NCBI RefSeq assembly: GCF_054482525.1
Contig: NZ_CM137006.1
DNA length: 64,000 bases
Strand: one strand, 5' to 3'
Shown here: in pieces, positions 20,125 through 26,003 of the stretch
How the letters are laid out: each line of letters opens with the position of its first letter
Position numbering within the stretch: the stretch's first letter is position 1
Made by a program: the position numbers and the translations under genes
The notes under the pieces: generated by a model
Databases searched by the model: none
Told to the model about the DNA's origin: nothing
The model's input: the letters and a program-made list of their open reading frames with translations, nothing else

Positions 20125-20604
20125 TCAAAGCAGACCATGTTCAGCGAACGACAATATCTGCGTACCACCGACGATAAGGTGGTCGAGCACCCGGATCTCC
20201 ACCAGCATCAGTGCATGTAACAGTCGTTGAGTGATAGCCTTGTCGGCCTGGCTTGGAGTCACTTCTCCGGACGGGTGGTTATGGGCAAATATCACCGCCG
20301 CCGCATTAAAGTACAGCGCGCGTTTCACCACCTCGCGAGGATGAACCTCAGTGTGACTGATGGTGCCGGTAAAGAGCGTTTCGTGGGCAAGCAGCTGGTT
20401 CTGGTTATTGAGGTACAACACGACAAACACTTCGCGCTCAAGGGGGCCCATTTTCAGCCTGAGCCAGTCGCGGGCAGCCTGAGTCGAGGTGAATGCCACA
20501 CCCGGTTCTAGCAAGTGCTGGTCAAGCAGAACCAAGGCTCGCTTAATGGTACGCAGTGCTGGTAACGGCAGTTCAGGTGTAAACATAGTCAGTTGTTTCG
20601 CCAT
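20125..20604 (-). CDS. RadC-like JAB-domain protein (YeeS/YkfG-like)
   Basis: JAMM-like motif HNHPSGEVTPSQADKAIT; 159 aa. Confidence 0.75.
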   Translation of the reverse strand: MAKQLTMFTPELPLPALRTIKRALVLLDQHLLEPGVAFTSTQAARDWLRLKMGPLEREVFVVLYLNNQNQLLAHETLFTGTISHTEVHPREVVKRALYFNAAAVIFAHNHPSGEVTPSQADKAITQRLLHALMLVEIRVLDHLIVGGTQILSFAEHGLL

Positions 20605-20980
20605 AGCAAATATCCTTAATTAAAGGTGGTGAGAATGACACTGGATTCGGCACGACAGGCGTGATGGTCGTATTCGAGTAGGAAGATGGTAATATGATTG
20701 CGGAATGCATGAGGAAACGAAGCCAGCAATGACCCAGTGACTCACACCCAATCACAGTGTTAAAAATAAAAAAATCCCGCAATCCAGCGAGGATTGCATT
20801 GGGATAATATCTATCTGTAATTATTTAGAAAAAATGTTTTTTTTCTGAGGTCTATTATAAATTTTTTTCGTTCAGAAACTTCTCGGATATGATCATCTGC
20901 TGAGTACCAAGAACGGACATTGTACCCAATAGTGAGTTAATCATTGGAACGTTGATCACCCCAATTGAAAATTTTCACAA

Positions 20981-21003
20981 TATCCAATATCCAATATCCA
21001 ATA
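20981..21003. repeat. Short tandem repeat (tatccaa x3)
   Basis: tatccaatatccaatatccaatat read directly from sequence. Confidence 0.6.
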
Positions 21004-21032
21004 TATCGGTGTAGAGGGCTTCTCTCTTAAAC

Positions 21033-22230
21033 TGATCCTACCCGCGTAATGTGGACACGCTCCTAAGCGAGATTCTGGTTTTCAAACTGTTTCGGGCTGA
21101 GGCCGCCATAATCGCTGTGACGCCGCCAGCGATTGTAATCGCACTTAATCCGCCGTCCGCATGATTTCCCGGCTGATAAAGCGTTCTCCGTGGATACACT
21201 CGACTTTTAACGAGTGTAAGAAGCTTTCCGCACAGGCATTATCATAACAGCAACCTTTTGCGCTCATGCTGCCATGCAGATTATGTCGTTTCAGCAGAGC
21301 CTGATAATCCGCTGAGCAGTACTGCCCGCCACGGTCGGTGTGAATTCGCCGCCACAGCGCCATCTGCAGTGCATCACAGGCAAGTTCTGCCGTTATTTGC
21401 GAGGACACCAACTAGCCAATAATAGCACGCGACCACCAGTCTATAACCACGGCAAAGTATAACAAGCTTTCATCGATGCGAAGGTACGTGATGTCACCAG
21501 CCCACTTCTGGTCCGAGCCACTAGATCTGAAGTCCTGCTTCAGCAGATTCTCCGGCACTGGCTGGTCGTGAGCACAGTAGATTAACGGGCTGAACAGACG
21601 TGAGGTTTTTGCCCGCAGGCCCTGACGACGCGAACTGTTGCTATCGTTTTGATGTTGTATTCCGGCGGCTCGTCTGCAAGACGAGCCGCACCATAACGCT
21701 GTTTTGCCTCAACGAATACCTTACAGACAGCTTCATTGAAGACGCACCGGAACTGTTGCCGATGGCTCAGTTGGGGACGACGCAGACACCAGGTATACCA
21801 GCAGCTGTGCGCCACGCACAGCACCCGACACATAGCTTTGATACTGAACTCAACCTGATATTTTTCGATAAAGATATACTTCATTTCAGGCGCTACGCGA
21901 AGTATGTCGCGCCCTTTTGGAGAATAGCCAACTCATTATCCCGCTCAGCCAGTTGACGTTTGAGGCAGGCAATCTCCGCTGCTTGTGCGCTCTCTCTCAG
22001 AGGATATTGTCTGGTGCAGTTGTTTGTAGAGCTGGGAATCGTAAAGGCTGAGTTCACGGGCGGTAGTGGCCACACCGAGACGTTCGGCCAACTTAAGGGC
22101 TTCTTCACGAAATTCAGGCGTGTGTTGTTTGCGTGACTTTTGTTGATTGATGCTGATTTTGTCATGTGAGCTACCTCTGATTGAGAGTTTACTCGCTTAG
22201 TCCCGTGTCCACTATTGGTGGGTAGGATCA
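21033..22230 (-). mobile_element. Degraded IS3-family insertion sequence (frameshifted orfA, interrupted orfB)
   Basis: Terminal inverted repeats tgatcctaccc (21033) and gggtaggatca (22220); ORFs 21893..22231, 21582..21884 and 21145..21411 match InsE C-terminus ([23 protein letters not shown]) and InsF N- and C-terminal parts, but not as continuous frames. Confidence 0.75.
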
Positions 22231-22579
22231 TTATTGATCAAAGATCAAGATGTGCAAAAATTCCCAAGTAAAGCCTTATCTGAACCTTCCGTTTTGTTAG
22301 CACATCTGACATTATTATTCAGTCAAATCCCTTCAGTTGATTGAGTTCAAAGGCGGTAGCTATGCTGATTTGCATTACTGTAAAACTTTTAAAGCAGAGG
22401 TTTATATAGAATTGCTCTGTTGAATAAATTAGTAGGTTCACATGGATTTTGAGTTCACCAAGCATGACAACTTGCGTTCTTCAAGCGATCCTGAGAAGCC
22501 TATTATATTAGTGTACAAGATGCCTCACGTGGCACCACTGAATTTTACATTAGACTCTATCCATTAAAACGATAAAATT

Positions 22580-24313
22580 ATGTACATAGCAAAAATTAAA
22601 TTTACAAATTTCAAATCATTCAAAGAGATGTCTTTTGAGTGCAATGATAAATTCAACATAATTGTTGGTGAAAATAATATTGGTAAAAGCACATTATTTG
22701 AGGGGGTAAGTTTATGGAAATATGCTTATGACAACCTTATTCAAGAAAAAAACAAAAACAAATTCTACAAAGCTTCAACTAACTACTACATTACCTATTC
22801 TACACTCGATCAAATAAGACTTGTTGACGATATTGATATTTTTAACGACCCAAAGAATAGCTCCGCATCAATATGCATTACAATTAAAGATGAACAAAAT
22901 GAATTTGATTTAGAGATTAGATTTGAAAAGCCAGGGATTAAAAATTCATACTTACGGATATTTAATAGCAATGGTTCTGATAATGACACACAGTTTTCAA
23001 ACTTTGAACGATTCTCAAACTATATAAAAGAAAAGGATTGCACTCTAAAAGATGCCATTTACATTTACCAAACAAGACCAATATCAACTATTTTTAGAGA
23101 TGAGCCATTTTACAATAATGCGCAGATAGAGAAAAAAATAAATATTGGAAAGTCACATGATGTCTTAAGGAATAAAATATTAAAAACCGAAAATACTCAA
23201 GCCACAAGGGTTGCACAAAAATTTGAAAATCTTGAGATTCGCCTACAAAAAGTCCTTGGTGAAAACTATATCTTAAAATTTAAGAATAGAAATCGAATCG
23301 ATGATGAGTATGTTAAAATAACTGCAACAAAGGAAAACGGGAAAGAATTGGAAATATCACTTATGGGTAGTGGTTTTTTGCAAGTCTTAGAGATATTTTC
23401 AACAATTGAGTATATGGAAAAGAATTCAACCGGTATTAACCTCATTCTTATCGATGAGCCTGATTCACATATCCACTCAAATTTACAAGCAAATTTAATT
23501 GACGAACTAAAGCAACAAACAGCATGTCAAATTTTTGTCATAACACATAATGACAGACTAACATCAAAAGCTAATGAAGGTGAGCTTTTTTATCTAAATC
23601 AGATAGTTAAGGATCTTGGTTTATTGTCTCACCTTGAAATATCTGATTATTCAAAAGTTAAAGATGGTCTAGCTAATGTACTAACAGCTATAAATGATGG
23701 AGATGAAACACCCATTGTTATAACTGAAGGAAAAACGGACCAGAAAATTTTAACAACTGCTTGGGAAAAGCTAAACCCAGGAACTCCTATGCCTTTTAAA
23801 ATAATTTCATCCGGCATTCAAATTGAAGAGGAAAAAAGAACTGGGTGCGCAGAGGCAGTTAGAAGATCTTTAGAATACATTTCAACATTAACTGATAGAA
23901 CAATTATCGGTTTATTTGATAATGATCGGGAGGGAAATGAGCAGTTCAAAGGATTAAATCGTTCTATTTTTGAACCTCATGACCTGCAAAATAACTCCCG
24001 AAAACATCAGATAAAAAATATCTATGGGCTTATTCTTCCCGTTCCTGTGCATAGAGAACGTTTTGTACAAAACAATTCTTTAACGCAGCGTTACTTCGTA
24101 ATTGAACAATATTTCCAAGATGAAATATTACTACAGCATAACATGAAAGGTGAGTCAATATTAGGTACTGAGGTATTTTTTGTTAATGACTCAAGAAAGA
24201 ATGAGTTTTCAGAGTCAACCAATGACCTTCCGGTAGAATGCTTTGGGGATTTTAGTATTTTATTCGATAAAATTTCCGATTTATTGGCTAACAATAGACC
24301 AGAAAACACTTGA
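22580..24313 (+). CDS. OLD-family ATP-dependent endonuclease (ABC-type ATPase + C-terminal TOPRIM)
   Basis: Walker A GENNIGKST, Walker B/H-loop LILIDEPDSHIH, TOPRIM glutamate IVITEGKTD and DxD motif FDNDREG; 577 aa; strongly AT-rich codon usage. Confidence 0.7.
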   Translation: MYIAKIKFTNFKSFKEMSFECNDKFNIIVGENNIGKSTLFEGVSLWKYAYDNLIQEKNKNKFYKASTNYYITYSTLDQIRLVDDIDIFNDPKNSSASICITIKDEQNEFDLEIRFEKPGIKNSYLRIFNSNGSDNDTQFSNFERFSNYIKEKDCTLKDAIYIYQTRPISTIFRDEPFYNNAQIEKKINIGKSHDVLRNKILKTENTQATRVAQKFENLEIRLQKVLGENYILKFKNRNRIDDEYVKITATKENGKELEISLMGSGFLQVLEIFSTIEYMEKNSTGINLILIDEPDSHIHSNLQANLIDELKQQTACQIFVITHNDRLTSKANEGELFYLNQIVKDLGLLSHLEISDYSKVKDGLANVLTAINDGDETPIVITEGKTDQKILTTAWEKLNPGTPMPFKIISSGIQIEEEKRTGCAEAVRRSLEYISTLTDRTIIGLFDNDREGNEQFKGLNRSIFEPHDLQNNSRKHQIKNIYGLILPVPVHRERFVQNNSLTQRYFVIEQYFQDEILLQHNMKGESILGTEVFFVNDSRKNEFSESTNDLPVECFGDFSILFDKISDLLANNRPENT

Positions 24314-25088
24314 TACTGTACTGCATTTTCCATATCGAGCTAAAACGGACCATTCGCTTTTAAAGTGATTACGGCATACGGGACAGATTTTCCTTAAAGC
24401 AAACGTCTCCTTCACGCCCTGAGACATTCGACATTAAGTAAGAACGGGGGTGCGCCTCGAGTGCCAGCAAATATTTTGCTTCGTCGTAGCGGGTTCTGGT
24501 CATCCAGCAGCTGTAAATGATCCTTATCCATTTATACGCCAGAGCCCAAATGGCTGATTGATGCGATTTTCCTTTTCTTCGCAGCTCTTACTAATAAAGT
24601 CTGGCCCAGAATGATGAGTTAATCGTCTTTGCAGCCCATTCCACGAATGTCTGTCGGACGAGCTCCGCACATTGCCAACATCAGTGTACCCAAGATTTCT
24701 GGCCGCTTTGTTCTGTCACCGGAAAAATACCTGCGTAGTTTTGAATTTCTTCAGCGCAGTTTAACTGGTCACGGTTACTTGAAGAAAGAAACTGACCACT
24801 GCGCTCGTCGTTCGGAAGTGCCAGGGCTATCGGTGGATATTAAGGGAAACCTGACAGCCGGAGGTAATCAGGGTTATTAATGCCGTCAGTGTGGGCCCCG
24901 CTACCAGTGAAACACTAATGTATTGATTAAGTTTCATATTCTTCCTTAATGAAAATAAGCATGTTTTCTTTTGCTAAATCAGTCGTCGTTGGCGATGAAA
25001 CCGGCTCACACATCACGCGATTGTTAAATGAAAAAGCCCCTATTGCGTGAGCAACAGGGGCTATATTTATTTTGTGTCTATAGAGGCA

Positions 25089-25499
25089 TCAGTAACCAGT
25101 TTTAACCTTGTACATCAATAGTGTTTTACTGCCCCGGACAATTTTCACATACAGGGCATTATCTTTCGTGCCTCGCACAAAACCGGCCTGCACATCGCCC
25201 TTACAGTCACCACCGTCGTAAGGAATATTGACACCTGTCTGACGCACCAGATCAATAACCCCGAAGCTTAAGTCCTCACAGGCCGGGCCCGGCAGGTCCT
25301 GAATCAGGGCAAATTTATGGTCGTCGCTGACACCGGTCAGTGAGCACATGGAGGTATTGATGTCGTTTCCCTGGCACCAGTACTCCTGACCGGGATTATC
25401 TTTATCCATCAGACTTGCCGGAAGCTGAGCGGCACCGGCACTGAAGGCGGCAAGTGACAGAATGAGGGCGGGTACAGCAGAGGTCATTATTTTCAGCAT
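25089..25499 (-). CDS. Hypothetical secreted Cys-containing protein
   Basis: Signal peptide MLKIMTSAVPALILSLAAFSAGAA; 136 aa. Confidence 0.5.
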   Translation of the reverse strand: MLKIMTSAVPALILSLAAFSAGAAQLPASLMDKDNPGQEYWCQGNDINTSMCSLTGVSDDHKFALIQDLPGPACEDLSFGVIDLVRQTGVNIPYDGGDCKGDVQAGFVRGTKDNALYVKIVRGSKTLLMYKVKTGY

Positions 25500-25565
25500 G
25501 GTTTTCTTCCTGAATTAATCCAGCCCGCTGTCGGGCAAAATGAGGGAGGTTGGTATCGGGTATTA

Positions 25566-26003
25566 TCAGAAGCGCCGGTAGCGAAACAGCTCTTTGCCCT
25601 GGTAAAGTGCCACCAGGTCGTCATATTCCGGCTTCTTCTGGTTGGGCTTAAAGGTCACTACCGTGCCCGGACGGCACAGATCTTTTACGGTGAGACCGAA
25701 TTTCCTATCCGGAGTAATGGTGAATCCCTTCGACACATCGTTGTGCATGATAGTTATCCAGCCCCACAGGCCGCCTTCGCAGTCCTTAAAGGGTGCTGAA
25801 CGAACTGTTACCATCCCACCCAGGCGGTCAACAGACATGGCTTCACATTTTCCGGTAACCTGTCGATGCGCATCACACCAGAAAATATTCCCGTTGTTGT
25901 CATTGACGACTGCAGGTAGCGTTCGGTTATAAGGCTGAGCCTGAGCGCCCACACAGAGCAGAAGGCTGCCGGTAATACCCAGTACTTTAATCAGTGTTTT
26001 CAT
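25566..26003 (-). CDS. Hypothetical secreted Cys-containing protein (possible paralog of 25089..25499)
   Basis: Start trimmed to MKTLIKVLGITGSLLLCVGAQA signal peptide; similar size and Cys/Trp spacing to the neighbour. Confidence 0.5.
   Translation of the reverse strand: MKTLIKVLGITGSLLLCVGAQAQPYNRTLPAVVNDNNGNIFWCDAHRQVTGKCEAMSVDRLGGMVTVRSAPFKDCEGGLWGWITIMHNDVSKGFTITPDRKFGLTVKDLCRPGTVVTFKPNQKKPEYDDLVALYQGKELFRYRRF

Follow-up and report, generated by a model that had tools for sequence, protein, structure and literature searches.

A probable ISEsa2-like IS110-family relic beside an OLD-like ATPase gene in a CP4-57-like island

The 64-kb stretch of DNA analysed here (the window) contains a gap of 775 bp, at 24314-25088, between an OLD-like ATPase gene and a gene for a signal-peptide protein. 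Sequence comparison makes it very probable that the centre of this gap is the right-hand quarter of an ISEsa2-like insertion sequence of the IS110 group. With much the same confidence we regard the gap as non-functional, inert scar DNA today, with no overlooked gene inside. The stop codons of the two neighbouring genes bound it exactly (Table 1), its GC content is 45% and the longest ORF inside it has 83 aa. The initial annotation had reported that no convincing gene lies here, and this agrees both with the exact coordinates and with the small size of the ORFs. The gap is made up of three parts: the 3' flank of the OLD-like gene, the IS110-family relic and a spacer of a CP4-57-like island. The recombinase-like translations obtained from it are explained by the dead IS110-family fragment.

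Table 1. Coordinates of the gap, its neighbours and the features within it (window positions)
Feature	Position	Strand	Details
OLD-like ATPase gene	22580-24313	+	Stop at 24313
3' flank of the OLD-like gene	24314-24404		AT-rich; abutted by the IS right end
Probable ISEsa2-like IS110-family 3'-terminal relic, ~373 bp	24405-24777	-	blastn, tblastn, Pfam, PGAP pseudogene
Damaged C-terminal codons and right end	24405-24452	-	Alignment to ISEsa2
In-frame stop TAA	24588-24590	-	Replaces Gln359 (Q359)
In-frame stop TAG	24591-24593	-	Replaces Tyr358 (Y358)
In-frame stop TGA	24681-24683	-	Replaces Trp327 (W327)
Putative deletion junction, relic/island backbone	24775-24777		Last aligned IS position 24777, first aligned backbone position 24775
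CP4-57-like island backbone spacer, 311 bp	24778-25088	-	Downstream of the 136-aa gene
36-aa ORF	24827-24937	-	AAGGAAG upstream; probably spurious
Decayed second intrinsic terminator	24840-24885	-	Stem mutated, U-run deleted; z -1.6
Predicted intrinsic terminator of the 136-aa gene	25035-25062	-	12-bp stem, 7 GC pairs, 4-nt loop, then TTTTTCATTT
Signal-peptide gene, 136 aa	25089-25499	-	Stop at 25089

Homology of the relic to IS110-family elements

ISEsa2, a member of the IS110 group of the IS110 family first named from Cronobacter (Enterobacter) sakazakii, was defined as the 1,517-bp span matched between two E. coli copies in unrelated contexts. Its 412-aa ORF, coding for a DEDD/Tnp bridge-type recombinase, lies between a left end of 243 bp and a right end of 35 bp, which is the layout of the IS110 group. 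The intact protein carries a DEDD_Tnp_IS110 domain at residues 11-165 and a Transposase_20 domain at residues 275-359 (Pfam). Intact IS110-family elements insert site-specifically with a bridge RNA as guide. In the IS110 group, the long non-coding left end encodes this bridge RNA (PMC11208160).

The relic has 79.5% nucleotide identity to the last ~375 bp of the two E. coli copies of ISEsa2 (megablast/blastn; L003, L004) and 84.6% to a copy on K. pneumoniae IncFIB plasmids (L009). All of these alignments share the end points 24402/24405 and 24777, and the nucleotide homology extends into the right terminus of the element. Residues 295-404 of the 412 in ISEsa2-type transposases align to 24782-24453 on the minus strand without a gap (tblastn), with 86-88 of 110 residues identical (78-80%, E about 1e-56). 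For the ISEsa2 transposase itself the number of identical residues is 86, with E-values of 2e-56 in a search of a 1-kb region and 5e-51 in a search of the window as a whole. What is left is the last ~110 codons of the transposase together with a shortened right end.

The conceptual translation of the relic also matches the Pfam family Transposase_20 (PF02371; E 4e-6, with 27.6 bits above the gathering cut-off of 21.3), within profile positions 28-82 of 87. PF02371 is the Tnp domain of IS110-family bridge recombinases. The Ser-Gly of this domain is kept in the relic as TEQSGQKS, an assignment made by motif position, with no direct alignment to IS621. In IS621, the serine of the Tnp-domain Ser-Gly is the catalytic nucleophile (PMC11208158).

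The transposase pseudogene is already known, being annotated in RefSeq. In E. coli SCU-102, PGAP places the transposase pseudogene HHJ21_RS04070 on the minus strand at the equivalent of window 24453-24776 and labels it 'frameshifted; internal stop; missing N-terminus and C-terminus'. PGAP annotates nothing else within the gap. The initial annotation had suggested that the remains of a lost recombinase-like gene may lie here. This is borne out by the PF02371 match, by amino-acid identities of 78-80% and nucleotide identities of 80-85%, and by the independent pseudogene call; a lack of similarity to any protein family had been set beforehand as the refuting outcome, and the match to an IS110-family transposase is strong. 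The same account described decayed, recombinase-like ORF fragments, which is right as to a minus-strand remnant with stops, but this remnant spans only ~373 of the 775 bp. The peptide offered there as an example of recombinase-like sequence, LAMCGARPTDIRGM, does exist at 24678->24637 on the minus strand but belongs to the wrong reading frame. Its frame is shifted by 2 nt from the homologous one, which gives CWQCAELVRQTFVEW over the same bases, so its recombinase-like look is accidental.

Like ISEsa2, the relic includes the right terminus of the element, has 78% amino-acid identity over residues 295-404 and keeps the TEQSGQKS motif. Unlike ISEsa2, it has no left end, no DEDD domain and no start codon, and it bears three stops and two deletions. 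The divergence is too great for ISEsa2 itself to be the source, and the relic therefore derives from a related isoform or a sister IS. The K. pneumoniae plasmid element (transposase WP_049183940.1, e.g. NZ_CP049605.1) is the closest intact relative found and has 80% amino-acid identity over the same segment. It encodes an intact protein of 412 aa, whereas the copy in the window is a truncated, mutated orphan. Between the plasmid copy and ISEsa2, identity is 92.6% at the nucleotide and 96% at the protein level.

E. coli S43 carries three different IS110-family transposase genes, those of IS4321, ISEsa2 and another IS110, within 4.5 kb (L003 548-1552, 2474-5006). This trio belongs to one resistance-region context and is unrelated to the window.

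Lesions, end points and missing parts

The transposase frame is interrupted by three stops (Table 1) and damaged by two deletions in 24405-24452, and its N-terminus is absent. A 1-bp deletion frameshifts the final 8 transposase codons, and a 13-bp deletion has taken the native stop codon together with some of the 35-bp right end. The right terminus of the relic, at about 24405, is where two independent ISEsa2 copies also cease matching each other; it is placed within ~3 bp, from three intact copies only. One intact copy has a flank similar to the sequence beyond this terminus (GTTTG...).

At the other side, ~1,140 bp of the element are lost, comprising the left end, the DEDD/RuvC-like domain, a coiled coil and the first part of the Tnp domain. 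Only ~25% of the element is present, and the other three quarters are physically absent. Transposase residues 1-294, with the DEDD domain (PF01548), have no match in the gap or elsewhere in the 64-kb window, and no homology to the element's left end was found anywhere in the window. Rfam detects no bridge-RNA family in the left end of intact ISEsa2, and the absence of a bridge RNA here therefore rests on lack of homology, not on an RNA model. Since the DEDD domain, the left end and an intact ORF are all lacking, the relic is the remains of an IS110-family member and not a functional member.

In general, a gene that is really intact may seem to have stops and frameshifts through errors of sequencing or assembly. 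The chance of this here is practically nil, since three quarters of the element are missing and the gap is identical at 775 of 775 positions in four assemblies, namely SCU-102, a further two from NCBI and a metagenome scaffold from ENA. This identity refutes an origin in errors and establishes that the lesions are real; they are fixed in this lineage. For SCU-102 (NZ_CP051753.1), the identity is 100% over 901 bp (24250-25150) and over 2,189 bp (22232-24420), the two stretches that were searched. The relic could also retain a role if its solo right end served as a half-site for a bridge recombinase acting in trans, which would allow RNA-guided rearrangement at the slot. The right terminus and its GTT(T) flank do resemble those of intact copies, and IS110 recombinases act on short sequences set by the bridge RNA (PMC11208160, PMC11208158). 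However, SCU-102 has no intact ISEsa2-like copy, and a search for a second copy in that genome found none at a sensitivity that finds copies of 80-83% in 42 other genomes. The right end of the relic has the 13-bp deletion and is ~15-20% diverged, the single hybrid junction has no partner site, and the arrangement is the same in every contig examined. We consider such a role extremely unlikely, and the wider use of the relic is as a historical marker only.

Spacer, terminators and small reading frames

The 91 bp between the OLD-like gene and the relic resemble the OLD-like gene in their AT-rich composition. They have no homology to ISEsa2 copies past 24405, and are absent from every other complete E. 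coli genome searched. Scans for terminators, promoters, tRNAs and Rfam families gave nothing above chance in them. Because the right end of the IS abuts here, this sequence is presumed to be the original target flank. The promoter scan returned two matches against 1.7 expected, both outside the gap at ~24157-24186, within the OLD-like gene. A scan for tRNA and tmRNA gave no match, and an Rfam scan of 23800-25600 at a permissive E-value gave only a sub-threshold PyrR match that corresponds to the terminator hairpin itself. A repeat search of 20600-25300 found none that is relevant in the gap, the only repeats being the inverted repeats of an IS3-family element.

On the far side of the relic, 24778-25088 is 82-84% identical to an unannotated stretch of E. 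coli NCTC9064 (L002 4001-4326). Part of it, 24784-24879, has 76% identity to the spacer that follows yfjT in the cryptic prophage CP4-57 of K-12, a spacer that occurs in 364 genomes and is unannotated in NC_000913.3. The homology with K-12 takes in a terminator hairpin and the next ~70 nt. In K-12 this hairpin is intact and directly follows yfjT, whereas in the window it comes 210 bp after a different gene, its U-run is gone and the IS relic lies next to it on the far side.

The spacer contains a predicted intrinsic terminator of the 136-aa gene, which is strong and working as far as folding and conservation indicate. The hairpin, with its U-run, begins 27 nt after the stop of that gene, folds with -22.1 kcal/mol (z -6.4) and is conserved in NCTC9064. 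The second hairpin has decayed, and a 12-bp deletion in the window removes its U-run. Its homologs are terminator-like, with 13 bp and a U-run in NCTC9064 (L002 4075-4113; z -4.7 for the whole 76-nt stretch folded, hairpin included) and 11 bp and a U-run in K-12 (L005 3065-3100).

Two small ORFs, the 36-aa ORF and an 83-aa ORF at 24629-24880 on the plus strand, could point to a real small gene hidden in the gap. Both are predicted by one metagenome gene caller, and the 36-aa ORF has an AAGGAAG Shine-Dalgarno sequence 5 nt before its ATG and a hydrophobic, lipobox-like N-terminus that ends in TSGC (...LITSGC). However, the 36-aa ORF reads through sequence that is the terminator hairpin in the homologs. 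Its counterpart in NCTC9064 has 68 aa and differs at 10 of the first 31 residues, mostly through non-synonymous substitutions, and its start is missing in K-12. It has no Pfam match, and the PGAP and K-12 reference annotations both leave it out. The 83-aa ORF runs antisense to the IS relic and across the deletion junction, and so cannot predate the deletion. A hidden gene is therefore very unlikely, and the 36-aa ORF, as far as its sequence tells, is probably spurious. A functional sRNA or a recombination site marking the cargo slot of CP4-57-like islands could instead be sought in the ~100 nt at 24784-24879 that are common to 366 E. coli genomes. These are 76% identical to the K-12-type yfjT spacer and 84% to NCTC9064, and they lie at the edge of a slot with differing cargo in three island types. 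Against this, the backbone genes next to them show at least the same identity, half of the stretch is the yfjT-type terminator that is broken in the window, and there is no Rfam match. Homology between K-12 and NCTC9064 furthermore runs 37 bp past the break in the window, which thus marks a deletion private to this sequence rather than a shared site. We judge a functional element to be quite improbable and read the stretch as inert backbone spacer.

A small lipoprotein or toxin was also considered for the 36-aa ORF and was rejected on its poor conservation and its overlap with the terminator.

The cargo slot and a possible history of the relic

Comparison with NCTC9064 delimits a variable cargo slot at window 20924-24774 in a CP4-57-like island, with radC on one side and the yfjT-side genes on the other. 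The cargo here consists of an IS3-family element, the OLD-like ATPase gene and the IS110 relic. In NCTC9064 the slot holds a YiiX-like hydrolase gene and a 392-aa gene, and in K-12 the yfjU/yfjV arsenic-gene remnants.

The most likely course of events begins with an ISEsa2-like element that would have inserted immediately 3' of the OLD-like ATPase gene, itself acquired horizontally. An illegitimate deletion across the 3-nt microhomology TAA, which the IS and the backbone have in common at 24775-24777, may then have removed ~1,140 bp of the element. The overlap at this junction is as expected of such a deletion. The event would have taken the bridge-RNA-encoding left end, the DEDD/RuvC-like domain and the first part of the Tnp domain, along with any DNA that separated the element from the island backbone. 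What was left, an orphan tail, would then have drifted neutrally, gaining the three stop codons and the two small deletions. We infer this order and the deletion mechanism; the homology, end points, lesions, missing parts, terminators and the identity of the gap across assemblies are observed. Neither an empty site nor another copy of the OLD-like module turned up in a search of 5,426 complete E. coli genomes and of PLSDB, and the original insertion junction and the order of events are therefore reconstructed indirectly. The IS might equally have arrived already broken, inside an imported block of cargo.

The OLD-like gene is flanked by a pseudogenised IS3-family element on one side and by the IS110 relic on the other. 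The relic might be the footprint of a delivery or exchange of defence cargo, mediated by a bridge recombinase at a preferred island site, although we hold this to be very improbable; if it were true, such events could usefully be traced through solo IS110 ends. On the preferred reading of insertion and deletion, the relic and the IS3-family pseudogene together suggest that IS activity and deletion reshaped the slot of a rare, AT-rich OLD-like gene.

The IS3-family element (21033-22230) keeps both of its 39-nt inverted repeats (21033-21071 and 22192-22230), which are 79% complementary. Its transposase is a pseudogene (PGAP: frameshifted, internal stop).

The OLD-like gene encodes an ABC-ATPase/OLD-like protein of 577 aa, has ~30% GC and is without a partner gene. 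The module occurs in one of the 5,426 complete E. coli genomes, and among PLSDB plasmids there is only a 67% match, from Pseudoalteromonas. Pfam detects AAA_21 and AAA_15 only, and the best PADLOC matches are NsnB, GajA and fused AriAB. The gene may be a rare single-gene defence candidate.
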